From: an uncultured Clostridia bacterium
GTDB taxonomy: Bacteria; Bacillota; Clostridia; TANB77; CAG-508
DNA: 64,000 nucleotides
Direction of reading: 5' to 3'
Assembly (NCBI GenBank): GCA_934167965.1
Contig: CAKPMJ010000002.1
Location: forward strand, 90,907-154,906
The stretch's first letter is position 1, and each line of letters starts with the position of its first letter. Shown piece after piece: positions 26,162-59,515 of this stretch. Made by a program: the position numbers and the translations under genes. The notes under the pieces were generated by a model. That model saw only the letters and a program-made list of their open reading frames with translations. It was not told the origin of the DNA and ran no database searches.

Positions 26162-26288
26162 CTTTTATCATTCCTTTCTTTCTAAAAAAGGTGATATGCT
26201 ATTTTTTTGAACAAAAAAATAGCACACCACGCTAGTGGTGCACCACGCTAATTGCATTCGCTAATTATTATTAGCTTCTAATTTCCTA

Positions 26289-26373
26289 TATTTTCATAGC
26301 AATAGCCTTTTCTAGGTTATCGCTTTTAGAGTTCAGACCTACTTTATATAAAGTGTGAGGCGAGTAGAATAGT
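26289..26373 (-). repeat. Conserved post-VR element (IMH-like GC-rich block CTCGCCTCACAC, stop codon, 3' UTR), copy 1. The other copy, with one mismatch, is at 55861..55945.
   Basis: Direct comparison of the two loci. Confidence 0.7.
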
Positions 26374-27589: not shown

Positions 27590-28111
27590 ATCGTTAATCT
27601 CCTTTCATTTTTTTCTAAAGTTTTGTAATTTTTTTAATTTTATTTTTATGTTTTTATTTTATTTAATAATAAAATTTTGTATTTTTTTATTCAAAATAAA
27701 TAATAGTTTATTGAACTATTCAGCAAAGATATTTAATTTTCAATGTGCTATTATTCATTTTTTCCTAAAAATTTACACGTTTATTATAGCATAGGGATTT
27801 TTATTTTTCAACCATTTTTAACAATTTATTTTTGCCTTACAAACTACATTTTACTTTTACTATTTACCAAATTTATTTTTATTTGCCATCTTTTTATTTT
27901 CTGATTTTACTCTCCGTACATATCTTTTCCACTCACATTATAATTGGTCATTTCTGTCGCTAAATTTTTTTCTGCTATTGTTAATGTTGGTAAAAAATCT
28001 GCAAGTGATCTATTTTCTTTTATTCCATATCTTGTCATCAACATATAAGTCTTCGATTTCTCTTTTGGCTCCCTTAGCTAAATTTATCTTTTATATCCAA
28101 GTTGCTCTTGA

Positions 28112-29860
28112 TCATTTCTTTGCTAATATTTTTTCAAATTCTTTAAATCTTTTTACTTTTTGAGTAGTAGTCTTTTCAAGTGGCTCAGTTGTTATTATTA
28201 ATTCTTTTATTCTCTTAAATACTGGTAAGCTCTTATTTATTTCTTTTATATCTTCCCATACCAAGTTTTTATATTCTTTTTCTGTTTTATCGCCGAATTT
28301 TTCTTTTATAATTTCTGGATCATATACTAATTTTATTCCTAGACTAATTTCTCCTTTTGTATTTTCTCTTGGATATAATATACTTTCTGTAACATAAGGT
28401 AATTTATTTACTAAGAATTCAATGTCACTTGGAAATACATTTTCACCATTTTTTAATACTATCACATCTTTCTTTCTTCCAGATATAAATAAATATCCAT
28501 CTTTATTATAGTATCCTAAGTCTCCTGTATGGAACCATCCATCTTTCATAACACTTTCTGTTGCTTCTGGGTTCTCATAATATCCAAGCATAACATTAGG
28601 TCCTTTTACAACTATTTCTCCAACACCATTTTCATCAACATCTTCTAATTTTAATTCAACATTATATGGTGCCATTCCTACACTTCCTGGGCATTTTTGT
28701 TTATCTGTTTCAGCTGCAACTAATGGTGATGTTTCTGTTAAACCATATCCTTGAACTGTTTCTATACCAAAACTGTTGTATCCATCTATTACTTTTTTAT
28801 CCATTGCTGCTGCTCCAAAATATGCTATTCTTAAATTCCCTCCAAGTTGATCTAACACACTTTTAAATAATTTTCTTCTTACATCTATATGTAGTTTTAA
28901 TAATCCATTGGCTAATCCACTCATTGTATCAACTAGTTTTGCTTTTCCTTGATCTTCTATAGATTTTCTTATCTTTTTATATATTGTTTCTAATACTAAT
29001 GGTACAGCAACAAATACACTTACTTTATATTCTACTAAGTTCTTAGCAATATATTTTAATCCATCACAAAATGCTACTGTAACTCCACTATAAAATCCAT
29101 ATAAAAATGTTATTGTGCATTCAAATGTATGATGTAATGGTAAAAATGATAATAAGACATCATTATCATACATTTTAGACATCTTAGCCATAGCAATTAT
29201 ATTAGATGTAATATTTTTTTGTGATAACATTACACCTTTTGCCATGCTTGTTGTTCCTGATGTAAATATTAATATACTCATTTTATTGTTATCAATTTTC
29301 ACATCTGCATATCTATGGTCACCATCTTCTATTTTCTTCATTCCTTGTTCAACTAATTCTTTAAATGATAATATACCATTTTCCTCTTTTTTCAAGTCCA
29401 TATTTATATAGTATTTTATTGTTTCGTTTTCTTCTCTTATACTATTGAAAACTTCGTTATATTTATTTTCATATATAACAGCATCAACTTTACTTCTTTC
29501 AATTAGATTTTTTATTTCTTGTTCTGGTAATGCTTTATCTAATGGCACTACTACCATATTAGATGTTGTTATTGCAAAATAACTTTCACACCATTCATAT
29601 CTATTATTTCCTATTAATGCAATTTTTTTATTTTCCAATCCTAATTCAAGTAACATTGTTCCCAATGCTTCTACTTCTTTTTTTACCTCTGAATAAGTTT
29701 TTTCTATTACTTTTTGATTCTTCTTCCCTAAGTTTTCTTTAAACTTGTATGCTACATTATTTGGGTATGTTTCACAACTATGGTTTATTAACTCCCTAAA
29801 ATTATTAATTTCATAAACTTCATAAAGATTACTATTTAATTTTTTCATTTTTCCCTCCAT
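28112..29860 (-). CDS. AMP-dependent synthetase/ligase (long-chain acyl-CoA synthetase, FAA1-type)
   Basis: AMP-binding motifs (IFTSGTTSMAKGV; GYGLTETSP; TGDLGYYNKDGYLFISGRKKD; VKRFKEFEK). Confidence 0.85.
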   Translation of the reverse strand: MEGKMKKLNSNLYEVYEINNFRELINHSCETYPNNVAYKFKENLGKKNQKVIEKTYSEVKKEVEALGTMLLELGLENKKIALIGNNRYEWCESYFAITTSNMVVVPLDKALPEQEIKNLIERSKVDAVIYENKYNEVFNSIREENETIKYYINMDLKKEENGILSFKELVEQGMKKIEDGDHRYADVKIDNNKMSILIFTSGTTSMAKGVMLSQKNITSNIIAMAKMSKMYDNDVLLSFLPLHHTFECTITFLYGFYSGVTVAFCDGLKYIAKNLVEYKVSVFVAVPLVLETIYKKIRKSIEDQGKAKLVDTMSGLANGLLKLHIDVRRKLFKSVLDQLGGNLRIAYFGAAAMDKKVIDGYNSFGIETVQGYGLTETSPLVAAETDKQKCPGSVGMAPYNVELKLEDVDENGVGEIVVKGPNVMLGYYENPEATESVMKDGWFHTGDLGYYNKDGYLFISGRKKDVIVLKNGENVFPSDIEFLVNKLPYVTESILYPRENTKGEISLGIKLVYDPEIIKEKFGDKTEKEYKNLVWEDIKEINKSLPVFKRIKELIITTEPLEKTTTQKVKRFKEFEKILAKK

Positions 29861-45158: not shown

Positions 45159-45563
45159 CTATTTTCCTCCTAATTCCTGCAAGCAGTGGATAGCCTCTTC
45201 TTTACCAAATCCTATATTTTTCATTCCTTCTAGGTAATTTTCTATTTTTTCTTTTGCCAATTTTCGTTTTATCTCTTCAATTAATTCATCATTATTTGTT
45301 ACAAATTTTCCATTGGTTCTTTCAGTGTAAAGTAATCCTTCATTTTCAAGTTCTGTTAATGCTTTTTGCATTGTATTTGGATTTACTCTTGCTGTAAGTG
45401 CTAGCTCTCTTACAGACGGAATTCGTTCTCCCTTTTTTAACTCACCAGATACAATTTGTATTCGCAACATTTCTACTAATTGAATATAAATTGGCCTTTC
45501 ATCATCAAAAATATATTTCACAATATCTATCCTTTCTATTATTGTATTACTTGCATAATACAA
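45159..45563 (-). CDS. GntR-family (YtrA-subfamily) transcriptional regulator
   Basis: Winged HTH (ERIPSVRELALTARVNPNTMQKALTELENEGLL); short C-terminus typical of YtrA; leads the ABC operon. Confidence 0.85.
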   Translation of the reverse strand: MYYASNTIIERIDIVKYIFDDERPIYIQLVEMLRIQIVSGELKKGERIPSVRELALTARVNPNTMQKALTELENEGLLYTERTNGKFVTNNDELIEEIKRKLAKEKIENYLEGMKNIGFGKEEAIHCLQELGGK

Positions 45564-45613
45564 TAATACTATTTTGTGTTTTAATTGTCAATATTTTATT
45601 TGAATTTTTTTAA

Positions 45614-45642
45614 GTTGTCAAAAAGGAACGTCCCCATTGACA
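45614..45642. repeat. 29-nt palindromic motif, copy A: TTGTCAAAAAGGAACGTCCCCATTGACAA
   Basis: 7-nt inverted arms TTGTCAA/TTGACAA around a 15-nt asymmetric core. Other copies at 57180..57208 and 49616..49682; degenerate copy at ~50829..50851. Confidence 0.7.
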
Positions 45643-45861
45643 ATAAGTTTGTATCTCACCAATCCCTTTTTCTATGTATTGCCTAACTTCATTATTTTCA
45701 ATATTCATTTTTTTGTAAGCATCAAATATCAAATTATATATTTCTTGTTTTGACTTATTTTTAAATTTCTCATATATATTTTGTACATCATTCAAATCTA
45801 ATTTTAATTCTAAATAATCTCTACCTGCTAATATACATCCTATTGCCTGTACTAAAACAAT

Positions 45862-45897
45862 ACAAAAAAGACTAACTTTTGAAGTTAGTCTTACTTA
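45862..45897 (-). terminator. Intrinsic terminator downstream of gene 45902..47005
   Basis: AAGACTAACTT-CAAA-AGTTAGTCTT plus a T-run (minus-strand orientation). Confidence 0.6.
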
Positions 45898-45901
45898 TTT
45901 T

Positions 45902-47005
45902 TTATTTTTCTATATATCCTTTTATTGACTTAGTATACATGTCATCTGTTATTGATTGATATTTCTTTCCATCATAATCATCTGTAAATCCATTATATGC
46001 TTTATAAACATCTCCTGTTTCTGTATTATATACTCTTTCATATCCTAAAGTTGCATCACTTTGTTTTTGACTCATTATATCATAAGAAGCATTTCTTGAT
46101 TCCCATGAAGACATTATACTATCTGTCATCTGATTACATATATTTCTAACATTTTGGAAATTTTTCATTACAGCATCTTCTTGGCTATAAAATTGATTTA
46201 CAAATGTATCTGTAAATTGTAAAGATGATGACATCTTATTTAAAACACTTTCCCAATTTATTAGTTCATCTTTTGGAGCTGTAATAAACATTGTATTATA
46301 TACATTTAAATAATATATATCTATTTTCTTTCCTGAGAAAACGTTTTCTTGAACATAATATGGTCCCGCATCATATACATATGCAGTAAATATTCCTTCT
46401 GCTTCTCTTCCATTTTCATTCTTAAAAGTTGCTCTTAATATATCTCCATCATTTATTGGAGATTTACCAATCTTTTCTGTTACTTTAAAATTAGTTAATG
46501 TTGGAAATGTAAATTCAGCTGTATTATTTACTGGTCCTAATTCATTAAATATCTTATAAAAACCTTCTGTAGTTTTTTCCGATATTACTGGATTTTTTGC
46601 AAATATACTATCTGGATAATATTTATTTTGAAAGTCTTTAGCATCTTGTGATTTGTTATATCCTTCTGTTTTCATATTAAAGAAAAATTGATATGCAGTA
46701 TCTTTTGGATTATATACCTTAATAGTATAATGTATACAATCTCCTATTACTTGAGTCTCCCATCCTTCTGGTATATCCATTGATACTAACCCATTATTAA
46801 AGTTAGTATATTTAATACTTGCAGTTTCACTTTCTTTTATTTTTACATCTTCTTTTTTAGAAAAAATACCACTACTTTTTGAAGATCCATTTTCATTCTC
46901 ATTTTTATTATTTTTTATAACTATCCCCCCTATAATACAAATTACTAAAATAATTGCTATACTTGCAATTATTAACAATACTTTTTTGTTTTTTATTTTT
47001 TCCAT
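45902..47005 (-). CDS. Hypothetical N-terminally anchored extracellular protein (367 aa)
   Basis: N-terminal TM/signal anchor; no C-terminal sorting signal; unknown domain. Confidence 0.5.
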   Translation of the reverse strand: MEKIKNKKVLLIIASIAIILVICIIGGIVIKNNKNENENGSSKSSGIFSKKEDVKIKESETASIKYTNFNNGLVSMDIPEGWETQVIGDCIHYTIKVYNPKDTAYQFFFNMKTEGYNKSQDAKDFQNKYYPDSIFAKNPVISEKTTEGFYKIFNELGPVNNTAEFTFPTLTNFKVTEKIGKSPINDGDILRATFKNENGREAEGIFTAYVYDAGPYYVQENVFSGKKIDIYYLNVYNTMFITAPKDELINWESVLNKMSSSLQFTDTFVNQFYSQEDAVMKNFQNVRNICNQMTDSIMSSWESRNASYDIMSQKQSDATLGYERVYNTETGDVYKAYNGFTDDYDGKKYQSITDDMYTKSIKGYIEK

Positions 47006-47009
47006 ATCA

Positions 47010-47768
47010 CTATTCCTCCTCTATTATTTTTTTAGCATGTACTACCACTCTATACTTGTTATTATTAGCACATGTTGACAATGTTAAAATAGAATCTTTT
47101 TTTGATACATCTATTTTAAAATCTTTGATACTTCTTTCTTTTATAGTTTGTATAAATTTCTCAAACTCACTATCATTTTTAAATTCAGTCTTAATATAAT
47201 AATCTTCTTCCTCTATCTTATAAATAGAAAATATTTGATATATATCATTTTGCTTCTCTGTATTAAGTATAATTTTTTCATTTTCTTTATTATTATACCA
47301 CTCCGATTTTAAAACTTTTTTCAAACTTCCAAACATTGAATTATCTCTTCTATTATGCCCATAAATCACAATATTTTTGTCTGTATTATCAAATTTATTT
47401 TTGTAGTCAGCAAAAATCCAACCGGCCGAGTTTATTTTTTTATTAAAACTATGTGTTAAATAAAATTCATTGTCTTTTGCCCTTACAATAGGATATTCAA
47501 TATTTGTATTATTTACTTTAATCCATGCAATAGTGTCATCATTTTGTTCTTTTAGTGATTTAAAATTTATATTATATTTTTCTTTTCCTTCATCAGAATT
47601 ATCATTTTCAACAATTACTGAATTATTTATTTGCCCCATTATATCATTACTCTCATTATTCTCTTTATACCATTTGTATATTTTTCCTTCTGAATATACT
47701 AACATACAAAATAATATCAAATAAATAAGTATATATTTTTTCTTCATCAAAACTCCCTTTCTCCACAT
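47010..47768 (-). CDS. srtB: Class B sortase (SrtB)
   Basis: Catalytic His in IYGHN and Cys in TLSTC; N-terminal signal anchor; size and motifs match SrtB. Confidence 0.8.
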   Translation of the reverse strand: MWRKGVLMKKKYILIYLILFCMLVYSEGKIYKWYKENNESNDIMGQINNSVIVENDNSDEGKEKYNINFKSLKEQNDDTIAWIKVNNTNIEYPIVRAKDNEFYLTHSFNKKINSAGWIFADYKNKFDNTDKNIVIYGHNRRDNSMFGSLKKVLKSEWYNNKENEKIILNTEKQNDIYQIFSIYKIEEEDYYIKTEFKNDSEFEKFIQTIKERSIKDFKIDVSKKDSILTLSTCANNNKYRVVVHAKKIIEEE

Positions 47769-47805
47769 ATATATTTTATCATATTATTTTTTATTTTTCA
47801 CGTTT

Positions 47806-47834
47806 TTACCAATATTTCCGTGACTCTTTGGTAA
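47806..47834. promoter_or_regulatory. Inverted repeat TTACCAA-N15-TTGGTAA in the promoter region of the double-HTH regulator, followed by TATAAT at ~47845
   Basis: Same 7-N15-7 geometry as the repeated palindromic motif, different sequence. Confidence 0.35.
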
Positions 47835-47895
47835 TTGATTTTTTTATAATTATGTGCTATATTATACCCATATAAATTTAACTTTGGAGGTTATT

Positions 47896-49617
47896 ATGAC
47901 TTTTTGTGAACAATTAAACAAATATATAGAACAAATCAACTGCTCTTCTCAAGAGCTAGTAACAGCTTCAGAACTTTCATCTACCGTTATTAGCCGTTAT
48001 CGTAAAGGTGATAGAACACCAAATATAAAAAGTAAACAATTAAAACAATTAGCAGATGGATTATACAAACTTAGCAATGAAAAAAATATCAATTTATCTA
48101 AAGATGAAATATATAATTCTTTAGCTAATACTTTAAATGATATTACTATTGATTTTGAGCAACTAAGCCAAAACTTTAATGAAATTATTTCAACACTAAA
48201 TATTAGCATTGCCGACTTGTCTCGTTTTATGGGATATGACTCTTCTTTTATTTCTAAAATTCGTACTGGAAGTAGAAATCCCTCAAAACCTCAAGACTTT
48301 ATAACATCAGTTTGCAATTTTATTGTAACAAAATATAACTCTGAAAGTGATAAAAAGACAATCTCTCTTCTTATTGGCTGTAAATTAGAAGACCTAAAAA
48401 ATGACTCAGCTTATCTTGAAAAACTAACTAATTGGTTTTCTACTAATTCGTCATTATCTAAAGTTGGTAATTTTTTAAATAACTTGAATGATTTTGATCT
48501 AAATGAATATATAAAAGCAATTCACTTTGATGAAATGAAAGTTCCTTTTGTTCCATTTTATAAATCTGGAACAAAAAATTATTATGGAATTGAGGAAATG
48601 AAAAAAGGTGAAATAGACTTTTTCAAAGCTACTGTCCTTTCTAAATCAAATGAACCTATTTTTATGTGTAGTGATATGCCAATGGAAGATATGGCTAAAG
48701 ATGTTGATTTTGGCAAAAAGTGGATGTTTGCCATTGCAATGACTTTAAAGAAAGGACTGCACTTAAATATAATTCATAACCTTGACCGACCATTTAATGA
48801 AATGATGCTTGGTCTAGAAAGTTGGATTCCTATTTATATGACAGGACAAGTTTCTCCTTATTACCTAAAAGGTATACAAAATTCAGTTTATTGTCACTTA
48901 AATTACGTGTCAGGTGTTGCTGCACTTACTGGAGAATGTATAAGTGGTTATCATAATAGTGGAAAATACTTTTTAACAAGCAATAAAGCAGATGTCTCAT
49001 ACTATCAAACTAAATCTAAAAATTTACTTAATATTGCTAAACCTCTTATGGAAATCTACAGATCAGAATCAAAAAATGCTTTTATAGCATTTATGTCTGC
49101 AAATGCTAAACTTAATGGAACACGTAGAAGAATCTTATCTTCTTTGCCAATTCAAACCATTTCAGATGAATTACTATTAAAAATTTTAAAACGAAATAAC
49201 GTAAATGATAATGATATAAAAAATATAATGGATTCTATAAAAGAACAAAAACAAATCATTCAAACAATACTAAAAAATAATACAATTGAAGATGAAATAT
49301 CAGAAATTTCTAAGGAAGATTTTGATAATTGTACTCCTACTCTTTCTCTTTCAAATTGTTTTTATGAAAATAAAGTTTATTATAATTATGAAGAATATTT
49401 AGAACATTTAAATTTAACTAAAGATTTTGAAAAAAGTAATAAAAATTATAAATTATCTACCAATTATAAACATACTTTTAGGAACATACAAATTCACATA
49501 TCTGAAAATAATTGGGTTATGATTTCTAAAGACAATTGCCCTTCTATACATTTTGTAATACAACATCCTAAACTTAGAGATGCAATTGAAAACTTTATTC
49601 CACCTGTAGTTGAATAA
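47896..49617 (+). CDS. Large transcriptional regulator with two N-terminal XRE-type HTH domains. Probable true start is ATG 47896; the ORF track starts it at 47854.
   Basis: RBS GGAGG at 47886-47890. Two HTH-like segments (QELVTASELSSTVISRYRKGDRTP and IADLSRFMGYDSSFISKIRTGSRNP) followed by ~450 aa of unknown domain. Confidence 0.6.
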   Translation: MTFCEQLNKYIEQINCSSQELVTASELSSTVISRYRKGDRTPNIKSKQLKQLADGLYKLSNEKNINLSKDEIYNSLANTLNDITIDFEQLSQNFNEIISTLNISIADLSRFMGYDSSFISKIRTGSRNPSKPQDFITSVCNFIVTKYNSESDKKTISLLIGCKLEDLKNDSAYLEKLTNWFSTNSSLSKVGNFLNNLNDFDLNEYIKAIHFDEMKVPFVPFYKSGTKNYYGIEEMKKGEIDFFKATVLSKSNEPIFMCSDMPMEDMAKDVDFGKKWMFAIAMTLKKGLHLNIIHNLDRPFNEMMLGLESWIPIYMTGQVSPYYLKGIQNSVYCHLNYVSGVAALTGECISGYHNSGKYFLTSNKADVSYYQTKSKNLLNIAKPLMEIYRSESKNAFIAFMSANAKLNGTRRRILSSLPIQTISDELLLKILKRNNVNDNDIKNIMDSIKEQKQIIQTILKNNTIEDEISEISKEDFDNCTPTLSLSNCFYENKVYYNYEEYLEHLNLTKDFEKSNKNYKLSTNYKHTFRNIQIHISENNWVMISKDNCPSIHFVIQHPKLRDAIENFIPPVVE

Positions 49618-49682
49618 GAGTGTCAAATGGGACGTTCCTTAATGACAATATATTGTCATTAAGGAACGTCCCATTTGACACT
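49616..49682. repeat. Perfect 67-nt palindrome made of two inverted copies of the 29-nt motif (GAGTGTCAAATGGGACGTTCCTTAATGACAATAT|ATATTGTCATTAAGGAACGTCCCATTTGACACTC)
   Basis: Read directly from the sequence; lies between convergent genes and may also act as a bidirectional terminator. Confidence 0.8.
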
Positions 49683-49690
49683 CTCTAACA

Positions 49691-50443
49691 TTAAATTCTA
49701 GTAGCCATAAGTATCTTTAATATTTTCTCCTTTGGGGTAAACACTTTATATTTAATAAAGTATTTCTGAATTGGATTGAAAAATGTATCTAATAACAAAA
49801 TATCTTTTATCCTAAATTTCACTCCTTTTCTTTCTAAATAGTCACATGTAAATAATTTACATCCTATACATTTAGCATCACATGTATAATTTTCCTTATT
49901 TAAATACTCACACAATACTAATTTTGTTAATGGTCCTAAACATTTTATTCTAAAATGGTGACAACATCCAGTTAATGATTTGGCATTTCTTTTTTCTCCA
50001 CATTTATTATTTTGAAAATCACACAGATTTTTTCCATAAAAGTGGCTGTCTAAATAGTTGCATACTGTATCATAAATATAATTGTATCTATTGTAACACT
50101 TATCATAAAAAATTGCATTTATACCATTAATAAAGTCTTTATGAAATATGTTGTTTTCATCATAATTTAATACATAGCCTATTATTATTTTATTATCTTC
50201 TTCTACACCTATCTTCACTTTTTGATGTAAAATCTTTGTTTTTACTTTAAGTAGTTTTCTTAACAACTTTTTATATTCTTTTTCATTAAATGTTCTAAAA
50301 TTTATTCTCAGTGTAAGTACACTTTTATTTTTTATTTCATTTGTACTAAAATTTATGATATCTATACTTCTTTCTTTGTTTTTTTCTTTATTATCCATAA
50401 TCTTCAAGTAATATTCATTATCTAGTTCTATATATTTTTCCAT
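49691..50443 (-). CDS. Hypothetical protein with a Cys-rich C-terminal half (CCHH..C..C..CxxC)
   Basis: ORF; no recognisable family; possible metal-binding protein. Confidence 0.45.
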   Translation of the reverse strand: MEKYIELDNEYYLKIMDNKEKNKERSIDIINFSTNEIKNKSVLTLRINFRTFNEKEYKKLLRKLLKVKTKILHQKVKIGVEEDNKIIIGYVLNYDENNIFHKDFINGINAIFYDKCYNRYNYIYDTVCNYLDSHFYGKNLCDFQNNKCGEKRNAKSLTGCCHHFRIKCLGPLTKLVLCEYLNKENYTCDAKCIGCKLFTCDYLERKGVKFRIKDILLLDTFFNPIQKYFIKYKVFTPKEKILKILMATRI

Positions 50444-50507
50444 ATGTTACCTCCTTTTTTATTATAACTCATAATTTGATTTTATTCAAGTATTTTTTTG
50501 TTTTTTA

Positions 50508-50536
50508 TTGACATAATATTTTATATATGGTATACT
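50508..50536 (+). promoter_or_regulatory. Near-consensus sigma-A promoter: TTGACA, 17-nt spacer, TGgTATACT (extended -10)
   Basis: Read from the sequence; about 50 nt upstream of the small ORF 50587..50760. Confidence 0.55.
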
Positions 50537-50586
50537 AATAGTATGATAATTTTATTATCAAATATTTCTGAAAGGAGGGTACTATT

Positions 50587-50760
50587 ATGGCATACAAAGA
50601 TAGTCAAGACTTCCGTAATGATTATCCTGGTGGATATTCAAAAAACGGCGATGTTTACGACGGCAATGACAATCGCGTTGGTTATGTAACTGGTGATGGT
50701 GATTATCGTATAAATAACGATAAAACCAACGATGGTCAACTGTACAGTAACAGAAAATAA
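50587..50760 (+). CDS. Small Gly/Asp/Asn/Tyr-rich hydrophilic protein (57 aa), not in the ORF track
   Basis: Strong RBS AAAGGAGGG; MAYKDSQDFRNDYPGGYSKNGDVYDGNDNRVGYVTGDGDYRINNDKTNDGQLYSNRK; followed by a strong terminator. Confidence 0.6.
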   Translation: MAYKDSQDFRNDYPGGYSKNGDVYDGNDNRVGYVTGDGDYRINNDKTNDGQLYSNRK

Positions 50761-50774
50761 GTAGTACCCCAAAT

Positions 50775-50818
50775 AACAAGACTGTTCAACAAATGTTGAA
50801 CAGTCTTGTTATTTTTTT
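50775..50818 (+). terminator. Intrinsic terminator (16-bp stem AACAAGACTGTTCAAC...GTTGAACAGTCTTGTT plus T7)
   Basis: Read from the sequence. Confidence 0.8.
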
Positions 50819-50898
50819 ATTAAAAGGTGCCAAAAGGAACATCCCTCTCGACCTTTCCATCAACACAAAAACCATCTCATTAAGAGATGGTTTAAATA

Positions 50899-50975
50899 TG
50901 GTGCTCCCTCAAGGATTCGAACCTTGGACCCACCGGTTATGAGCCGGTTGCTCTGACCAACTGAGCTAAGGGAGC
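50899..50975 (-). tRNA. tRNA with anticodon CAT (Met; could be tRNA-Ile2 after lysidine modification)
   Basis: Minus-strand cloverleaf GCTCCCT/TAGCTCAGTTGGTCAGAGC/AACCGGCTCATAACCGG/TGGGTC/CAAGGTTCGAATCCTTG/AGGGAGC-A-CCA, with encoded CCA. A terminator hairpin follows at 50865-50892. Confidence 0.85.
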
Positions 50976-51132
50976 AATTATTCACGACATTTAGTAGTAT
51001 ATATTATTTTTTTTGTTTTGTCAATAGTTTTTTTGTATTTTTTTGTTTATTTTGTTTTTATTTTATTAAAATATAACAATAGTTAATATATTAGCATTAA
51101 ACTAATATATTAACTATACATAAAAAACTAAA

Positions 51133-52065
51133 TTATATGTTTTCTCCTCTACCTTCTGGTAATGCATTACTTGGAAGTTCGATTCTAATTTTAATTCTAA
51201 ATACATAAGTTGCTGCTCTAACGATTTTGCTATTTTTAATTCTTTGCCATAATGATGGTTTAGCTTCAAATGTTGTTGCTTCTTGATATGCTTGTTGTTC
51301 TTCTTTCTCTGCAACTTCTGCTGCTACTACATTTTCTTGTTTTGCTTCTTCTTGTTTGTTTTCAACTGCTTCAACAGTCTGAACAGCTTGAGCATTTTCT
51401 TGAGCCATTGCTTCTTGTTCTTCAATAGCTTCTATTTGTTCTTCTGGTGTTGGTATTAATTTTAATGCATCTGCAATTTCAATTCCTATAAAACTTAATG
51501 CCTTAGAACTATCTTCTAATCTTTCCATATCTATTTCTATATGTAAATTAGACTCTAAATTATTTATTCTTGCTTTTAATAATTTAATAGAATCTAAATA
51601 ATTTTGTGATGTTTTTGTTTTGCATCTTCCTAAAGTATTTAAAGTTTCTATTATATCCTCAGAGAATTTTTCTGTTGCTGCTTCTATATCTTCTTTCCAT
51701 CCTTCTTCTTTGTTAGATACTTTTTCCACTAATTCTTTAAGCTCTGCTGCCAATGATATATTTTCTTCTCTTTGCTTAATTAATTCTTCTATTTTTTGAG
51801 TATTTTCTTCAAATTGTGTTGTAGCAAATTCAACTAAGCCATAAGCAGCTTTATATACACTTATAGGGAAATTTTTCTTTTTTGGATATTCTATTAAATA
51901 TGTTTTTATAGATTCAATTAGATCTTTGAAATATGTATCTTCTTCTAATTGAATTATTTGTTTTTTGCTGTTTGGATTTATTAATTTTTGTACTTTTTCT
52001 ATATTTGATAAAATCTTTTCTTCCGTAATTACCATCCTTACATTTACTATGCCAGATCTAGACAT
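51133..52065 (-). CDS. Hypothetical coiled-coil protein with a Glu/Ala/Gln-rich segment
   Basis: ORF only. Confidence 0.45.
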   Translation of the reverse strand: MSRSGIVNVRMVITEEKILSNIEKVQKLINPNSKKQIIQLEEDTYFKDLIESIKTYLIEYPKKKNFPISVYKAAYGLVEFATTQFEENTQKIEELIKQREENISLAAELKELVEKVSNKEEGWKEDIEAATEKFSEDIIETLNTLGRCKTKTSQNYLDSIKLLKARINNLESNLHIEIDMERLEDSSKALSFIGIEIADALKLIPTPEEQIEAIEEQEAMAQENAQAVQTVEAVENKQEEAKQENVVAAEVAEKEEQQAYQEATTFEAKPSLWQRIKNSKIVRAATYVFRIKIRIELPSNALPEGRGENI

Positions 52066-52210
52066 TGTAAACTTCCCTCCTTTGTTTCTAATTATTACAT
52101 TATATACTTTGATTATACAACATCTTACAAAAAACTACAAGCCATTTTCCGTAAGTTTTTATTTACATTTCTGTTACATAAATATTACAAAAATATTACA
52201 AGGATTCAAG

Positions 52211-53917
52211 TTATCCTTGTAATATTTTTTCCATCTCAACTTTTCTTTTTATTTTATGAGTTGTAGTCTTTTCAAACTCTTCATCTGTTATTAATAGATT
52301 TTTTATCCATTTATATTTTGGCATTGTTCTATTAACTACTTTTACTTCTTTCCATATAAGCTCTTTAATCTCATCTTCCGTAAGGTTTCCATATTTTTCT
52401 TGTATGTAATTTTTATCATATACAACCTTTACACTTACAGTTATGTCTTTATCCTTAAAATCTTCAGCACCATAAACCATTGATTCATCAACTAATGGAG
52501 AATTATTTAACAAAGTTTCTAGCTCTTCTGGATATACATTTTTTCCATTTGATAAAACAATAACAAATTTCTTTCTTCCTGAAATAAATATGTATCCATC
52601 TTTATCAATTTTTGCATAATCTCCTGTATGAAGCCATCCATCTTCTGTAAAAGCCTCTTTATTCGCTTCATCATCTCCAAAGTAACCTAGCATTACGCTA
52701 TCACCTTTTACAAGTAATTCGCCTACTCCTGTTTTTTCATCAACTTCATCTAATTTAACTTCTACACTTGGTAGTTTCTTTCCGATAGAGCCTATTCTTC
52801 TTTGATTTGTAAGCTCTGCTGCAATTACTGGTGATGTCTCTGTCAAACCATATCCTTGTAATAAATTAAATCCTAAGTCAAAAAATCCTTTTTCTACTTC
52901 TGGGCTTAAAGCTGCTCCTCCAGCAACCATAACCTTAATCTTTCCACCTAAGTTTTGATGAATATCTTTAAATAATCTTTTACGTACATCTATACCTACT
53001 TTAGATAAAATGTTGCTCATTTTTACTGCTGTTTTTACTGTTCCATCTTTACCTTTATCTTTTATTCCTTTTAGTAACTTTCCATACATTTTTTCATATA
53101 CAACTGGTACACAAATCATTGCAGTTATTCCAAATGTTTTCAATTCATCTGCAATATGTCTTACACCTTTAGAAAATACAATACTTGCTCCAATTGATAT
53201 TGGATATAAAAATCCTACTGTACATTCAAATGTATGATGTAATGGTAAAAATGATAATAATATATCTTCATCAGTAAGTTCAAAGGATTCTTGGATATCC
53301 ATAATATTAGTACATATATTTTTATGAGATAGCATTACTGCTTTTGATTTATTTGTTGTTCCTGATGTAAATAACATTATTCCCATTTCTTCGTTATTGA
53401 TTTCTGCATCTATAAATTCCTTATTTCCGCTATCTACTAATTCTTTTCCTTTTTCTAATATCTCTTTTAGAGAATATTTATCAAATACATGTTTTTCTAA
53501 ATCCATAGAAATAAAATATTTTAATTTTGAATCTCCCTTTTTTTGGATGTTTGCCATTGCCTCATCATATTTATTTGAATAGACTATAGCTTCAACTTCT
53601 GAACGCAAAATTAAACTTTCTATTTCATTTTCTGGTAATGCCTTATCTAAAGGTACAACTACACCAACTCCTGTAGCAATAGCAAGATATGCTAATTCCC
53701 ATTCATATCTGTTTTCACCTATTACAGCTATTCTTTTACCTTTTAAGCCCATTTCTATCATTGCAGTACCTAAATAATTTATTTCTTCTCTGAATTGTTT
53801 ATGTGTAATTTCTCTTACTCCAGATTTTTCTTGTAATAAATATGCTTTTTTGTCTCCATATTTTTCACCTGTCTGTTTTAACATATCTTTTAAATCTTTA
53901 AATTCCATAGTTCTCAT
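52211..53917 (-). CDS. AMP-dependent synthetase/ligase (long-chain acyl-CoA synthetase), paralog of 28112..29860
   Basis: LFTSGTTNKSKAV; GYGLTETSP; TGDYAKIDKDGYIFISGRKKF; C-terminal KIKRKVEMEK. Confidence 0.85.
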   Translation of the reverse strand: MRTMEFKDLKDMLKQTGEKYGDKKAYLLQEKSGVREITHKQFREEINYLGTAMIEMGLKGKRIAVIGENRYEWELAYLAIATGVGVVVPLDKALPENEIESLILRSEVEAIVYSNKYDEAMANIQKKGDSKLKYFISMDLEKHVFDKYSLKEILEKGKELVDSGNKEFIDAEINNEEMGIMLFTSGTTNKSKAVMLSHKNICTNIMDIQESFELTDEDILLSFLPLHHTFECTVGFLYPISIGASIVFSKGVRHIADELKTFGITAMICVPVVYEKMYGKLLKGIKDKGKDGTVKTAVKMSNILSKVGIDVRKRLFKDIHQNLGGKIKVMVAGGAALSPEVEKGFFDLGFNLLQGYGLTETSPVIAAELTNQRRIGSIGKKLPSVEVKLDEVDEKTGVGELLVKGDSVMLGYFGDDEANKEAFTEDGWLHTGDYAKIDKDGYIFISGRKKFVIVLSNGKNVYPEELETLLNNSPLVDESMVYGAEDFKDKDITVSVKVVYDKNYIQEKYGNLTEDEIKELIWKEVKVVNRTMPKYKWIKNLLITDEEFEKTTTHKIKRKVEMEKILQG

Positions 53918-55657
53918 TTATTCTGTTCCTTTCTCATTTTCCTGTTTTAATTTTAAATATCCCAATTCATTCCAACTATTATATGCTAAGTTCAATCTAA
54001 ATACAACTTTAGGTTTAGCTCCTGCTCTATTTTTATCAACAACACATGCATAATATCTAACATCAGGGTCATCAAATTTTTCTAAGTCATAAAATTTTGT
54101 ATCTACTTCTTTTAATGAATATTCATATTGGTCTAATGTGCTTCTTGGTATTTGTTTTATTAAACATAATGTATCTAATACCTCTTTTACTGTTCTACTA
54201 GCAGATAAATCATTTACATCTAAGTTTATAGGCAATGTTGCACTTTCTGTTAATTGAAGTGTTGACCCTATAAATATATTAAAGTCTTGCGCTAAATTTG
54301 ACAATATTGTTGCTGTTTTCTTTACCTCTTCTCCATTTCCAATATGTGCAGTATCTGTTTTTAATGTATCATAAAACATATATTGTATTTGTTCTTTATA
54401 ATAATAATTTTTTATTACTTTGCTTAATTCATCATTTGTATGATCTGTAATGTTTATAAAATATATTGCATTGTTTACTTGAGTATTTAACCAATCTGTA
54501 GCTTTCAATGTTTTATTAAAGTCTGATGAATATTTTTTTAATTTTTCTATAAACTCTGTTTGTGTTTCTTTTTTATTTCTTGCTATATAACCATTTTCGT
54601 CTATTTCTACATCATCTTTATTATCTGGTCTAAATTTTAATTCTAGTAATTCACCTTCGCTAATCTTTATTTTTTGTCCATGTATTTTTTGAATCTCTGG
54701 ATTATTTATAATTGTTGTAATCAAACATAGCTTCATTTTTTCTTCTGACATTTCATTTGAAATTACTAACACTTTCTTTTTATGTACAAAAGCAAGATAT
54801 GCGGCTAAATTTATTGTAAATCTACTTTTACCAGAGTTTGATGGCATTGCAAAAGCTGTTGTTTCTCCTCTTCTTATACCTTTAAACACACTTGATAATA
54901 TATTAAATGGTAAATTAAGACCTTTGGCTAAGTTATTTTCTCCTGCTGTCAAAAATTCTGTTATTCCTTCATTTAATACAGCTTGTTTAAATTTAGCTGT
55001 TACCTGTGCCTGATTCACTGCGCTTTCAACTTCCTCAATTGACATTTGGTCATATAATTCATAATTTACTATATCTACAATTTTATTTTGAATTGATTTT
55101 ATTGGTATTTCTAAATAACTTTTTCTTAATATAAATAATTTCTTTAGTTCAACATAAACTTTTTCAAAATCTATTCTTTCATTTTCGACTTTGTTTTTTA
55201 AATCTAATTTTAGTTGATATGACTCTTTTGTATCTTTTGCAAAATTATAATTTCTTTTTGCTTTTTCAGAGGCGTATTTATCACCTTCTGTAAATAAAAC
55301 ACTTTTATATAAATTTAATATCTCTTGATTTGCAAAATAATTTTCTTCAAATACAAAATAGTACATACTTATAGATTTAGGGTCATTCAACAAAAGTCCC
55401 ATATATTGCTCTTCAAGTTCTTCATTCATCAACGCATTTGGGTATATTTGCCCTTCTTCTGTTAAATAATCATCTTCTATTTTTTCCTCTTCTTCATCTG
55501 TTTTGTTTTCTTGTAATTTTTTTAATTCATATACTGCTTGCTCAACTTCATCGTTGTCTAACATTTCTTTTATCTCTTCTAATTTTTCTCTATTTCCCTT
55601 TGTTACAGGAATTGCTTTTAATAATTGATACATTTTTTCTTTTATTTCAGGATTCAT
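53918..55657 (-). CDS. Divergent DnaB-family helicase-like protein (N-terminal DnaB_N-like plus RecA-like C-terminal domain)
   Basis: YMGLLLNDPKSISMYYFVFEENYFAN (DnaB N-terminal pattern). Walker A-like GETTAFAMPSNSGKSRFTINLAAYLA. C-terminal VVDKNRAGAKPKVVFRL (DnaB KqRnGptG-like). Stop TAA abuts the ATG of the downstream ligase gene. Confidence 0.55.
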   Translation of the reverse strand: MNPEIKEKMYQLLKAIPVTKGNREKLEEIKEMLDNDEVEQAVYELKKLQENKTDEEEEKIEDDYLTEEGQIYPNALMNEELEEQYMGLLLNDPKSISMYYFVFEENYFANQEILNLYKSVLFTEGDKYASEKAKRNYNFAKDTKESYQLKLDLKNKVENERIDFEKVYVELKKLFILRKSYLEIPIKSIQNKIVDIVNYELYDQMSIEEVESAVNQAQVTAKFKQAVLNEGITEFLTAGENNLAKGLNLPFNILSSVFKGIRRGETTAFAMPSNSGKSRFTINLAAYLAFVHKKKVLVISNEMSEEKMKLCLITTIINNPEIQKIHGQKIKISEGELLELKFRPDNKDDVEIDENGYIARNKKETQTEFIEKLKKYSSDFNKTLKATDWLNTQVNNAIYFINITDHTNDELSKVIKNYYYKEQIQYMFYDTLKTDTAHIGNGEEVKKTATILSNLAQDFNIFIGSTLQLTESATLPINLDVNDLSASRTVKEVLDTLCLIKQIPRSTLDQYEYSLKEVDTKFYDLEKFDDPDVRYYACVVDKNRAGAKPKVVFRLNLAYNSWNELGYLKLKQENEKGTE

Positions 55658-55910
55658 ATTTTTTTTCCTCCTAGTATTTGTTCTTGCTTATTATATCATT
55701 TAGTTTTTTGTATTTCAAGTATTTTGTTAATAAATACTCCTGTATATATTTTTTTCATACTAATCTTGGTAAGCCTTTATTAACAAAAAAATTAGCCAAA
55801 ATCCTTAAATTTACTTTAAGAATTATTTGACTAATTTTTCCTTCTTTTATTAATTTTCTATATTTTCATAACAATAGCCTTTTCTAGGTTATCGCTTTTA
55901 GAGTTCAGAC

Positions 55911-57149
55911 CTACTTTATATAAAGTGTGAGGCGAGTAGAATAGTCGCTGCTAGTAAGGTACGGATGGTTGTTGGGGCGATTGCTAGGTGAAAAGCTAAG
56001 GCTGAAATAACCACCTCTGAGAGCACGACGGCTAGTGTAGTTCGCCTCTAATGTCCATTCATAACTATTTCCTAGTAAATCATATATATTGTTTAATTTA
56101 TCTGTTGAGACTGTTCCTGTTTTTCGTGTTGTATTTCTACTTGTTGTTACTCCTTCTAAATTTGTTGGAGTTTTTGATGTTACGTCTATTCCATTTTCTT
56201 GCATCCATATCATCATTTGATCATATTGACTTCCCCATATCATACTACTTCCTACTACATTTTTTATTTTATCTTGCCCACTATATTCTTTATCTTTTTG
56301 ATATAATCCATACCATGTATTTGCACTACTTGTTTCTGCTGTTGCCGATGCTACGCCAGATATTGATTGAGCATTTTTTGTTTCTGTGTTTAAACTTGTT
56401 TCATATCTTCCTACATAGAATCCTTTATTTTTTTCTACATATTTTATCATTTCATCAAATTCGTTTTGTAATTGTGTTTTCCATTTCGTTAGTATCTCTT
56501 CATCTGTTCCATTTAAACCTACTATACTTTTCAATAAAGCTATTCCTTTTGCATCATCCCCTGTTATTGCATCTCCATATGCTGTACTTGATAAATAGTC
56601 TGGCTCTCTGTAGTCTGTTGCACCTGTCCATTTCATAACTCCTGATGTCTCTGTCCAACTATTCGCTCTATATCCACTTGAAGTAAAGTTATAAAGTTTT
56701 CCTAGTTTCTTTTCTTCTGCATTTGTTCCATACATTTTACTTACATCTTTTACTGGCACCCATACAAATTCACTATTATCTGGTGCTACTACTACTATTC
56801 CTTTTTTTACTTCTGTCGGTGAATCTTCTTTTATTTTAAATCCTACTGGCACTACTATAGTTTCTCCATTGTCATCTTGTAATTTTACTTTTCTTCCTTC
56901 TATAACTTTATTTTTATTGTCTTTTACCTTTCCTAAGTTTCCTGTACTTTCTTCCATTAAAATTTCTAAATCTGTTAAGTCTTCTGTTTCATTTGTTTGT
57001 GCTTCTTCTGTTTTCATTTTAGCATCTGCAGCCTTCTTTAATATTCCATTTTCTCCTGATAGCATTGCTATTGCGACTCCTGCTAATATCAATAACACTA
57101 TTATTGTTATTACTAGTGCTATTAATGTTATTCCATTGTTTTTCTTCAT
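55911..57149 (-). CDS. DGR target protein 2 (paralog of 26339..27589) with a distinct C-terminal variable region
   Basis: Same pilin-like N-terminus (NGITLIALVITIIVLLILAGVAIAMLSGENGIL) and FGE/CLec domain. The C-terminal ~45 aa differ (…EANYTSRRALRGGYFSLSFSPSNRPNNHPYLTSSDYSTRLTLYIK). Confidence 0.8.
   Translation of the reverse strand: MKKNNGITLIALVITIIVLLILAGVAIAMLSGENGILKKAADAKMKTEEAQTNETEDLTDLEILMEESTGNLGKVKDNKNKVIEGRKVKLQDDNGETIVVPVGFKIKEDSPTEVKKGIVVVAPDNSEFVWVPVKDVSKMYGTNAEEKKLGKLYNFTSSGYRANSWTETSGVMKWTGATDYREPDYLSSTAYGDAITGDDAKGIALLKSIVGLNGTDEEILTKWKTQLQNEFDEMIKYVEKNKGFYVGRYETSLNTETKNAQSISGVASATAETSSANTWYGLYQKDKEYSGQDKIKNVVGSSMIWGSQYDQMMIWMQENGIDVTSKTPTNLEGVTTSRNTTRKTGTVSTDKLNNIYDLLGNSYEWTLEANYTSRRALRGGYFSLSFSPSNRPNNHPYLTSSDYSTRLTLYIK
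55946..56080 (-). other. DGR variable region VR2
   Basis: See VR1; mismatches are confined to this block. Confidence 0.75.
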
Positions 57150-57179
57150 ATTATTTCTTCCTTTCTTTATTTTTTATTA

Positions 57180-57208
57180 TTGTCAAAAATGAACGTCCCC
57201 ATTGACAA
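57180..57208. repeat. 29-nt palindromic motif, copy B (TTGTCAAAAATGAACGTCCCCATTGACAA), 30 nt upstream of the target-2 start codon
   Basis: 27/29 identical to copy A. Confidence 0.7.
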
Positions 57209-57324
57209 CTTTAATGCACCATAAAAAGACAATATAAACTTATCCAGTATCATAATACTTACCAGATAAGCCAATATTGCCTTTTTCACTATATATCTTA
57301 TTATTTATTTTTACTAAACTAATT

Positions 57325-57344
57325 GTGTGTGTGTGTGTGTGTGT
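57325..57344. repeat. (GT)10 dinucleotide microsatellite
   Basis: Read directly: GTGTGTGTGTGTGTGTGTGT, ~175 nt upstream of DGR target 2, between divergent genes. Confidence 0.9.
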
Positions 57345-57997: not shown

Positions 57998-58031
57998 AAA
58001 GCTCATGTATAAAACATGAGCTTTATTTTTA
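57998..58031. terminator. Bidirectional intrinsic terminator (AAAGCTCATGT-ATAAA-ACATGAGCTTT plus T-run) between the Cys-rich gene and sigK
   Basis: Read from the sequence. Confidence 0.75.
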
Positions 58032-58730
58032 TTCTTCCATTTCTTCAGATAACTTGCTTATTGCTTTGCTTTCTATCCTTGATACATATGAACGAGAAAT
58101 TCCCATTGATTCAGCAATCTCATTTTGTGTTTTAGGTTTACTTCCGTTTAACCCAAACCTTAATTCTATAATAGTTTTCTCTCTATCCTTTAACACTTCC
58201 TTCATTTTTGCATATAATTTTTTAATTTTTAACTTTAAATCAACAACATCTTCTACACTTCTTTGATCATTTTCTAACACCTCTTCTAATGTAACCACAT
58301 TATCATCCTTATCTTTACCTACTGTATCATTTAAATAAACTTCTGCATTTAGTTTTTTTATAGATCTTAAATACATTAAAATCTCATTATCTATGCAACG
58401 TGAAACATATGTTGACAATCTTGCTCCTTTCTCAACGTTAAAACTATTAATTCCTTTTATTAATCCTATTGTACCTATTGATAATAAATCATCTTGATCA
58501 ACATTTGTATTAGCATATTTTTTACATACATGTGCAACTAGTCTTAAATTTTTTTCTATAAGTAAATTTCTTGCCTCCTCATCTCCTTGTGACATTTTTA
58601 TTAATGCGTTTTTTTCTTCTTCTGCAGATAATGGCTCTGGAAAGACTGTTGTTCCAGAAATATATCCTACTGCAAATATAGCAGTTTTTAAAAAGCTGAA
58701 AAACCCTGATAGACAAAGGCTAGATAACAT
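58029..58730 (-). CDS. sigK: Sporulation sigma factor SigK (pro-sigma-K with ~20-aa pro-sequence). The gene is intact, with no intervening element.
   Basis: Closest to sigma-K: YISGTTVFPEPLS (processing-site region), LRLVAHVCKKY, GTIGLIKGINSF, GISRSYVSRIESKA. RBS GGAGG precedes ATG 58730; the upstream in-frame Met at 58760 is unlikely. Confidence 0.8.
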   Translation of the reverse strand: MLSSLCLSGFFSFLKTAIFAVGYISGTTVFPEPLSAEEEKNALIKMSQGDEEARNLLIEKNLRLVAHVCKKYANTNVDQDDLLSIGTIGLIKGINSFNVEKGARLSTYVSRCIDNEILMYLRSIKKLNAEVYLNDTVGKDKDDNVVTLEEVLENDQRSVEDVVDLKLKIKKLYAKMKEVLKDREKTIIELRFGLNGSKPKTQNEIAESMGISRSYVSRIESKAISKLSEEMEE

Positions 58731-58875
58731 AAATGCACCTCCATTTTTTCTATAACACATTATATGCTTTAGAAAAATAAAAGTGCCTGACCATAAAAAA
58801 CTTTATTTTTTTCATATTCCCTTGAAATTATATCATAATCATGATATAATTTTCATACATTAAATAAAAGGAGGA

Positions 58876-59235
58876 ATGACTATGGCAGTTATAAGACCAT
58901 GCGCAGATTTAAGAAATAAATATAATGAAATCTCTAAAATTTGCCACCAAACTCAAAAACCTATATATATTACTAAAAACGGTACAAATGATCTGGTAGT
59001 TTTAAGTGATGAGGCTTATGAGGAAATCGTAAAATCAACACAAGAAAAAGTTGAAGAAAAAATTAAAAAACTTATTTCTAAACAATTTGATAAACATTAT
59101 AATGATTTTGAGCAATTTAAAAAAGACATTTTCAGGAAAATTGAACAATCCATTAAAGAAATAGAAAATGGTAATTGTATACCTATGGAAAACATCGTTG
59201 CAGAAATGGAGGAAATCTATGACTCCACTAAATAA
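58876..59235 (+). CDS. Phd/YefM-family type II antitoxin (with a longer C-terminal helical extension)
   Basis: N-terminus RNKYNEISKICHQTQKPIYITKNGTNDLVVLSDEAYEEI matches the Phd/YefM fold. Confidence 0.7.
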   Translation: MTMAVIRPCADLRNKYNEISKICHQTQKPIYITKNGTNDLVVLSDEAYEEIVKSTQEKVEEKIKKLISKQFDKHYNDFEQFKKDIFRKIEQSIKEIENGNCIPMENIVAEMEEIYDSTK

Positions 59236-59515
59236 ATACCAAATCTCTTGGTCTCCTCAAGCTTATAAAGATCTTAAGGAAATATATAATTATATTTCGA
59301 ATACTTTAAAAGAAAAAAACATAGCCAAAAAAATTACTAGTAAACTTTTAAAATCAATATTAAACTTGAGTTATCTACCAGAAAGATATCCAAAAATTTC
59401 AAATTTTAATGATAATAGCAAGAACATTCGAAAAATGCTGGTAGATAACTACATAATTATTTATGAAATTCATAATTTTACTCGGAAAAGTATTTATATT
59501 AAATATATTTCATAG
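59219..59515 (+). CDS. RelE/ParE-family type II toxin
   Basis: Start ATG 59219 with RBS GGAGG; overlaps the antitoxin by 17 nt; YQISWSPQAYKDLKEI...IRKMLVDNYIIIYEI pattern. Confidence 0.65.
   Translation: MTPLNKYQISWSPQAYKDLKEIYNYISNTLKEKNIAKKITSKLLKSILNLSYLPERYPKISNFNDNSKNIRKMLVDNYIIIYEIHNFTRKSIYIKYIS

Follow-up and report, generated by a model that had tools for sequence, protein, structure and literature searches.

A REP-like hairpin repeat in gut Clostridia and its probable RAYT-type Y1 transposase partner

We examined a 29-nt palindromic repeat in a 64,000-nt stretch from an uncultured Clostridia bacterium (contig CAKPMJ010000002.1, positions 90,907 to 154,906; referred to here as the window). 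The window has about 27% G+C, and the minus strand holds most of its genes. The repeat has the form TTGTCAA...GGGACGTTCC...TTGACAA, and we observed four full copies and one decayed copy of it. Copy 1 lies between the terminator of an upstream 367-aa gene and the promoter region of a GntR-ABC operon. Copies 2a and 2b form a doublet that fills the gap where two genes converge, from one stop codon to the other. The decayed copy follows a tRNA-Met gene, and copy 3 is followed after 30 nt by the ATG of a pilin-like gene (55911-57149), which is a target of a diversity-generating retroelement (DGR).

The initial annotation of this DNA had reported a repeated 29-nt palindrome confined to a 12-kb stretch. 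The repeat is real and non-random, its positions run from 45.6 to 57.2 kb of the window, and the reported sequences matched, with coordinates 1-2 nt off. Copy 1, a near-identical repeat as described, sits at 45615-45643 (given as 45614-45642). The doublet is indeed a perfect palindrome of two inverted copies, but it measures 68 nt (49617-49684) instead of the 67 nt given for 49616-49682. The copy reported at 57180-57208 was found exactly there and is identical to copy 1 except for one G>T, and a degenerate copy was also confirmed downstream of the tRNA-Met gene (exact span in Table 1).

A search of the window with the 29-mer pattern, allowing up to 3 mismatches, gave 4 matches (0.00 expected from 100 shuffles), and the 10-mer core gave 5 matches (0.08 expected). 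A covariance model recovered the four full copies with E-values of 3e-11 to 4e-8 and nothing else credible. Using a weight matrix built from 20 copies, we observed that the decayed copy was the sole additional window site scoring 5 bits or more. Scanning 44-59 kb against Rfam with a permissive E-value returned only the tRNA and spurious microRNA-type matches on the long palindrome, and a full-text literature search with the core sequences returned unrelated primers only.

Table 1. Copies of the 29-nt repeat and the features formed by them in the window.
Feature	Position	Strand	Sequence or form	Score or remark
Repeat copy 1	45615-45643	-	plus strand TTGTCAAAAAGGAACGTCCCCATTGACAA, minus strand TTGTCAATGGGGACGTTCCTTTTTGACAA	covariance model 48.3 bits, E 3e-11
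Doublet palindrome, REPIN/BIME-like	49617-49684	.	34-nt arms, 100% complementary, 0 nt between	
Repeat copy 2a	49620-49648	+	GTGTCAAATGGGACGTTCCTTAATGACAA	covariance model 38.1 bits, E 3.6e-8
Repeat copy 2b	49653-49681	-	inverted partner of copy 2a, 4-nt gap	found by pattern and covariance model
Decayed copy	50826-50854	-	AGGTCGAGAGGGATGTTCCTTTTGGCACC	downstream of tRNA-Met and its terminator; 15.1 bits
Repeat copy 3	57180-57208	-	TTGTCAATGGGGACGTTCATTTTTGACAA	covariance model 43.9 bits
Promoter-like site P1	45593-45621	-	TTGACA-17-TAAAAT, 11/12 consensus matches	-35 box is the 3' arm of copy 1

When folded, copy 1 forms a 7-bp lower stem, a mismatch, a 5-bp upper stem and a triloop. Across the 20 copies, 92.9% of the cells of the 12-pair hairpin were paired, and sliding the pairing register brought this down to 48-64%. 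The alignment contained 13 double-change cells compared to 4.8 in shuffles, and none of 500 shuffles reached as high a value. Three pair types each were seen at pairs 1-29 and 4-26, and a G10-U20 pair was kept in 18 of the 20 copies. The strand bearing GGGACG folds better than its complement through G-T or G-U pairs, at -11.0 versus -7.3 kcal/mol with RNA parameters and -5.4 versus -5.0 kcal/mol with DNA parameters. For the 68-nt doublet, the folding free energy was -55 kcal/mol (RNA parameters) or -37.5 kcal/mol (DNA parameters). None of the copies has a T-run behind it, whichever strand is read, so that the motif is not a plain intrinsic terminator, a reading that the initial annotation had also disfavoured. 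The terminator scan placed terminator-like sites elsewhere, one at 45868-45892 (the stem and T-run that serve the 367-aa gene upstream of copy 1) and a further one at 50869-50893.

In the related genome L005, the motif was observed to bracket a 251-aa gene with a Y1_Tnp (IS200-like) domain. The upstream copy is TTGCCAAAAGGGACGTTCCTTTTTGGCAA, and an inverted copy, TTGTCAGAAAGGAACGTCCCTTTTGACAA, begins 4 nt past the stop codon. The arms of the upstream copy, TTGCCAA/TTGGCAA, represent a compensated change in comparison to TTGTCAA/TTGACAA. Inverted flanking of a Y1/HUH gene was also seen in L026-L034, L118 and L119. A protein search gave 451 homologues of about 250 aa, and all seven that were fetched with their flanks (P0020, P0003, P0088, P0118, P0099, P0016 and L005) had the same layout. 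The fetched homologues showed 41-47% identity over the full length, with P0099 at 58% over 59% of the query. The upstream hairpin lies on the strand of the gene, roughly 80-140 nt away in the seven and 80-250 nt in related genomes, and in most of the seven, one or two further copies, in inverted orientation, lie at the stop or directly behind it. The hairpin differs in sequence from clade to clade (e.g. GTGGCAAAAGGGCCAGCCTTTTTTACCAC and GTTGTCAATAGGGACGCCCCTTTTTGACAAC). We also noticed a G-rich box (GGGGC or GGGGA, then A/T) between the upstream hairpin and the start of the RAYT-like gene, at 5705-5750 in L005 and around 2940-2990 in L026, L029, L031 and L033, which may be a promoter or regulatory element.

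We further evaluated this arrangement in metagenomes, where a scan using a 17-protein alignment contributed 80 more loci. A matrix match upstream on the strand of the gene, together with an inverted match downstream, was present in 33 of the 69 metagenome loci evaluable on both sides, and only about 12 matrix matches lay elsewhere in those loci. The polarity of the repeats around the transposase gene is fixed. Another 24 loci had no matrix match; 23 of them were evaluable, 16 had flanking inverted 24-mers (at 22-24/24), and GGGAC or GGGTC was present in 14 of the 16.

Upstream hairpins were found at 66 of 83 RAYT-like loci. They comprised 54 distinct sequences with about 20 unrelated stem types (for example TGTCAA, TGCCAA, AGACAA, TGGAAA, GAACACTT, GAAACGTTT, GTGATTTC and TCAACCA), and yet the loop began with GGGAC in every such hairpin, mostly as GGGACG(G/T). 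No such hairpin was seen in a subgroup with a different C-terminus (L101, L103, L105-L111). With variable but self-complementary stems around a constant loop, a folded single strand is favoured over duplex half-sites as the form that is recognised. The earlier view that the 7-nt arms are half-sites could therefore not be maintained, since these arms are exchanged elsewhere for unrelated self-complementary sequences while the GGGACG loop is kept.

The gene was located in a queA-tgt or dnaB-tilS context in 19 of 87 loci. The lineages with these contexts include proteins that are only about 44% identical, while their QueA and Tgt share 77-87%. This fixed synteny suggests a domesticated, vertically kept gene rather than a hopping insertion sequence (IS).

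In an alignment of the homologues, the HUH motif (H61, H63) and Y121-I-H-N-N-P were invariant. The best NCBIfam model for five proteins was REP_Tyr_transpos (55-76 bits), and the IS200 model matched only 4 of the 5, at 18-27 bits. The protein is related to TnpA_REP: the sole PDB sequence match was 4ER8, the E. coli TnpA_REP bound to a REP hairpin, and 4ER8 was also the top Foldseek match of the AlphaFold (AF2) model (pLDDT 85.8). The next Foldseek matches were the IS608 and ISDra2 transposase-hairpin complexes (E about 1e-5 to 1e-4). The C-terminal 60 or so residues (187-250) are helical in the model, with a pLDDT of about 90. Pfam matches of this part to helix-turn-helix (HTH) families were sub-threshold only (HTH_28 with E 0.003, HTH_11 and HTH_23), and Bac_DnaA_C gave no Pfam match in these proteins.

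The distribution of the repeat in other genomes was examined by scanning one genome per species with the pattern TGTCA-N5-GAACGTCCC-N2-TTGACA. We obtained 15 stretches in 13 metagenome-assembled genomes (MAGs), with about 1 match expected by chance. Twelve of the MAGs were uncultured Clostridia or other Bacillota (25-49% G+C), and the remaining one was a member of the Eggerthellaceae (65% G+C). Nearly all of the matches were adjoined by extra related copies, inverted or tandem and usually degenerate. The motif had been tied to the accessory stretch flanking the tRNA, but this does not hold elsewhere, as it lies between housekeeping genes such as recA, recJ, ychF, hrcA-grpE-dnaK, accD/accA, galE, cmk and fmt/def. 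The copies occur as singlets, convergent doublets and tandem clusters in intergenic DNA, and a 6.7-kb stretch held 5 copies in L031 and 6 in L014. Neighbouring copies of opposite orientation were always convergent (window, L001, L003, L004, L006/9/10, L013, L014 and L031), which is the polarity seen around the RAYT-like gene. Examples of doublets, besides that of the window, are L031 1440/1480 and L004 7024/7057, with others in L003, L013 and L006/9/10. The motif was absent from a scan of viral contigs, and hence no phage link was seen.

Some of these occurrences had unusual arrangements. At the contig end of L014 (1-184), five copies, one of them inverted and the other four direct, follow each other in tandem about every 38-40 nt, and L008 has a run of three direct copies. 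As L014 is the sole tandem cluster, with spacers of about 10 nt, and the window copies are kilobases apart or inverted, a CRISPR array was rejected. In the Eggerthellaceae MAG, which comes from a termite-gut sample, a perfectly palindromic motif, GTGTCAATGGGGAACGTCCCCATTGACAC, with an adjoining partial copy lies at L007 233-261; either the repeat occurs across phyla or the sequence was binned wrongly.

We also compared the window with conspecific contigs, recognized by identical neighbouring proteins and taken from human-gut assemblies, those of Hadza included. The contigs were polymorphic at two of the four sites. Copy 1 was present in 8 of 9 related contigs and missing in L019, where about 1.17 kb (L019 2130-3290, corresponding to window 45593-45650) takes its place. 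This segment includes the intact 3' end of a DUF6179-like remnant open reading frame (ORF) and a PDDEXK_2 (Rpn-like) gene. Since L019 carries this DNA where the repeat sits elsewhere, the repeat allele is tied to a deletion or replacement. Rpn/YhgA-like genes were also noticed 0.2-2.3 kb from copies in L004 and L009; with L019 included, these cases are too few to tell an association from chance.

The second polymorphic site is the doublet. It is 68 nt long in the window and L017, and a perfect palindrome of 50 nt in L016 (5495-5538), L018 and L021. In the shorter allele, 9 nt (GTTCCTTAA / TTAAGGAAC) are gone symmetrically from both arms, starting directly after GGGAC, and this symmetric loss suggests hairpin-templated correction or processing. 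Copy 3 was unchanged in L115 and L116, and the sequence of the decayed copy drifts between strains.

To place the repeat among known systems, we considered the published REP (repetitive extragenic palindrome) families. Di Nocera et al. (2013; PMC3733652) described TIRtrons, in which RAYT-like TIRYT genes are flanked by inverted repeats sharing GGGGWSAS, some of them self-complementary, occurring also as dimers and clusters at moderate copy number; Firmicutes and Clostridia are not mentioned there. The present repeats are similar, in that a RAYT-like Y1/HUH gene lies between inverted repeats with a G-rich motif at roughly fixed distances, and the repeats are partly self-complementary and form head-to-head dimers and clusters at low to moderate copy number. 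Compared to the published consensus only, the motif here is GGGGACG(G/T), with position 7 mostly G and not A, and some copies read GGGACAGT or GGGGACAC. A different group of repeats in the same paper, the CGTC-tagged REP superfamily, was rejected as a match, as it has an unpaired terminal tetranucleotide tag, 8-9 bp stems, 4-5 nt loops and no transposase.

In length the protein exceeds classical RAYTs, and its additional C-terminal part may be HTH-like, as in TIRYT, the equivalent of the TnpA_Y1 of subclass 2.1, which is characterized by a C-terminal HTH (Quentin et al. 2018; PMC6006769). Assignment to subclass 2.1/TIRYT fits when judged by domain layout and motif rather than by a tree. Quentin et al. 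reported no REP-like secondary structure beside such genes, whereas the flanking repeats here are clear stem-loops with extensive stem covariation, which suggests that this HTH-bearing RAYT-like subclass does use hairpins. In Clostridia, Group 1 RAYTs have been described with low-copy flanking 16-mers, about 12 per replicon (Bertels et al.; PMC5581495).

Classical REPs are marked by a GT(A/G)G head and a GC-rich stem, and their occurrence together with RAYTs was confined to gamma-proteobacteria (PMC2817692). The 29-nt motif shares with the REP/RAYT systems the short (20-40 nt) imperfect stem-loop palindrome, the extragenic position as singlets and inverted doublets, and the bracketing of a single Y1 transposase-like gene, with 4ER8 as best match, in a stable chromosomal context. 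It differs from them in having the conserved motif on the 5' side of the loop and not at the foot of the stem, in its AT-rich stems, and in the extra C-terminal domain of the protein. Elements of the IS200/IS605 type (IS608, ISDra2 and PATE-type derivatives) also have a Y1 HUH enzyme that recognises subterminal hairpins in single-stranded DNA, and the fold match agrees with this. However, the gene studied here is not visibly multi-copy or mobile, and both flanking hairpins are one sequence in inverted orientation.

Together, these observations have led us to conclude that the 29-nt motif is most likely a REP-like hairpin repeat of the TIRtron type, cognate to a clostridial Y1/HUH transposase of the RAYT/TIRYT type. 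The repeat belongs to a known class of bacterial "junk" repeats, here in an undescribed lineage, and is best explained as one stem variant of a small-hairpin repeat family in low-GC gut Clostridia. According to this model, a domesticated transposase of about 250 aa (RAYT/TIRYT-type, with a putative C-terminal helix-turn-helix) would act on the repeats. In transiently single-stranded DNA each copy would fold to a stem of 6-9 bp, of any sequence that pairs, with the conserved GGGAC(G) opening the loop. The transposase would read the hairpin shape and the loop motif, and then cut and rejoin the single strand. Repeated activity of this kind could, over time, have scattered singlets, convergent doublets and clusters into intergenic DNA, and the copies in the window would presumably have been mobilised in this way. 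They may also have side effects on their neighbours.

Several results weigh against this conclusion. The window holds no RAYT-like gene, and a tblastn search of the window and L001-L015 found a homologue only in L005. P0099 and P0016, picked for their higher identity, belong to species other than the window organism. As no RAYT copy from the window organism itself was located, the link between repeat and enzyme is one by family and not by genome, although the organism presumably encodes such an enzyme. The REP_Tyr_transpos scores fall short of the curated 80-bit cut-off for this RAYT model. The classical REP tag, the GT(A/G)G head, is absent, with no GTAG or GTGG beside the copies. Single hairpins are only moderately stable as DNA (-3.3 to -5.4 kcal/mol), and the strand of the repeats is mixed in relation to GC skew, with no lagging-strand bias seen. 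The copy number also looks low: the 64 kb hold 4-5 copies, none of them outside a 12-kb stretch, and no representative genome had more than 2 strict matches. Classical REPs typically exceed 100 copies per genome, and the number here looks far below this.

The initial annotation had compared the motif to a recombinase or dimeric-regulator site. The first half of this comparison survives in part, as the motif is a likely substrate of an enzyme that breaks and rejoins DNA, but the enzyme indicated is a HUH/Y1 transposase specific for single strands and reading a hairpin, and not a tyrosine or serine recombinase or a dimeric regulator. If the copies were att, dif or inverton-like core sites, at which a classical recombinase of the tyrosine or serine type inverts, integrates or excises the tRNA-flanking segment, this would account for the arm-core-arm look and the nearby tRNA-Met gene, and L011 does have two copies directly upstream of a XerC-like integrase gene. 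Near the window copies, however, there is no integrase or invertase, and among at least 10 conspecific contigs the segments between copies were neither inverted nor excised, gene order being kept wherever contigs span the copies. The dispersal among housekeeping genes, the stem covariation favouring a single-strand hairpin and the consistent partnership with an HUH enzyme rather than an integrase also speak against such sites, which we consider very improbable. An operator of a dimeric or tetrameric transcription factor (GntR or the 573-aa HTH protein), with the 7-nt arms as half-sites two helical turns apart and a small regulon, is just as hard to credit. It would agree with the inverted repeat and its centre-to-centre spacing of about 22 bp, with the position of copies 1 and 3 upstream of genes (several elsewhere lie 16-27 nt before an ATG) and with the overlap of copy 1 and a promoter-like site. 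Yet the replacement of the arms by unrelated self-complementary sequences, with the asymmetric loop motif kept, is the opposite of what half-sites do. Copies also occur between convergent stops, within the accD-accA operon, directly after stops and in tandem arrays; those upstream of genes are in either orientation, and the downstream genes share no function. The only consistent neighbour of the motif is the Y1 transposase gene, and GntR has a palindrome of its own (see below).

An element acting mainly at the RNA level, whose transcribed hairpin would end, stabilise or shield mRNAs and which selection for this role would have spread, was judged unlikely, but it does draw on several observations. 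The minus-strand transcript folds better through G-U pairs (-11.0 versus -7.3 kcal/mol), the G10-U20 pair is retained, the 68-nt doublet sits exactly between convergent genes, and classical REPs affect mRNA stability and termination (PMC3733652). The lack of T-runs after the copies with genuine terminators nearby, the occurrence in both orientations relative to flanking genes and the lack of an Rfam match count against it, and the fixed bracket around the transposase gene would be left unexplained. A role of this kind is probably a secondary effect, compatible with a REP-like repeat. Quite unlikely, too, is the possibility that the repeats are the ends of an autonomous IS200/IS605-type IS, with the solo copies as decayed remnants or PATE/MITE-like derivatives. 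The Y1_Tnp fold, the hairpins flanking the gene as in IS608 and ISDra2, and the 68 of 87 loci that lie in neither of the two synteny contexts tested would suit an IS. On the other hand, the same queA-tgt or dnaB-tilS slot is occupied in lineages with about 44% protein identity, the left and right hairpins are one sequence inverted and not two distinct ends, the protein scores higher on the RAYT than on the IS200 model, and the viral contigs gave no match.

Taking the REP-like repeat as the preferred explanation, annotators of low-GC gut Clostridia gain a repeat class, a covariance model and a simple rule, namely any stem of 6-9 bp with a loop starting in GGGACG. The system should be tractable for studying how Y1 enzymes read a loop rather than the foot of a stem, and the repeats show where strains of an uncultured gut lineage have changed structurally. 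We raise, with considerable doubt, a more specific possibility: the repeats and the Y1+HTH enzyme of about 250 aa might form a distinct, undescribed REP/RAYT branch in gut Clostridia and occasional Actinomycetota, in which the GTAG foot has been replaced by a GGGACG loop on an arbitrary stem and the gene has become fixed at queA-tgt and dnaB-tilS. The 9-nt loss in the doublet could then be a footprint of processing in vivo. For the window itself, a false lead is removed, since the motif is no local signal for the GntR-ABC operon, a tRNA island or the DGR target.

The surroundings of copy 1 were examined for promoter and operator elements. The -35 box of the promoter-like site P1 lies in the repeat (Table 1), and so copy 1 may donate a -35 box to the GntR-ABC promoter; an effect on transcription would follow from this prediction. 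A second promoter-like site, P2, lies downstream of P1 at 45563-45591, and the L019 allele, which is without the repeat, keeps only P2. We also observed a 10-bp inverted repeat, TATTGTATTA-N6-TAATACAATA, on the minus strand at 45535-45560, between the GntR -10 box and the ribosome-binding site. This is likely to be the autoregulatory GntR operator, as predicted from its sequence and position. With this separate and better-placed palindrome, the 29-nt motif is not needed as a GntR operator, and that idea was ruled out. The GntR start is most likely the GTG at 45521, giving the 120 aa called in related contigs, rather than the TTG at 45563 in the ORF list.

The other copies may likewise touch their neighbours. 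The 68-nt doublet may serve as a read-through barrier between the convergent genes, and copy 3 may fold into a hairpin within the 5' region of the pilin-like gene. A link of copy 3 to the DGR was ruled out: no copy precedes the paralogous DGR target gene at about 27.6 kb, and the proximity of copy 3 to such a target is therefore incidental. The paralogous modules (26279-29554 and 52490-56150, 70-85% identity) each comprise an AMP-binding enzyme, a DnaB_C-like gene and the 3' part of the pilin-like gene, and the repeat is found upstream of the second module only.

Near the tRNA-Met gene, a 44-nt sequence (50771-50814) forms a 20-bp hairpin with T-runs on both sides; it resembles a bidirectional terminator, and its sequence is not related to that of the repeat. 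An (AC)10 microsatellite (57324-57344) lies within a 19-codon ORF (MKKARTVEAVHTHTHTQLV), some 115 nt upstream of both copy 3 and the pilin-like gene. Its length is identical in the window, L115 and L116, and hence no phase variation was seen. Beyond copy 3, the window contains a toxin-antitoxin pair of the Phd/YefM-ParE type (58876-59515) and a sigma-70-family gene with regions 2 and 4 (58029-58760).

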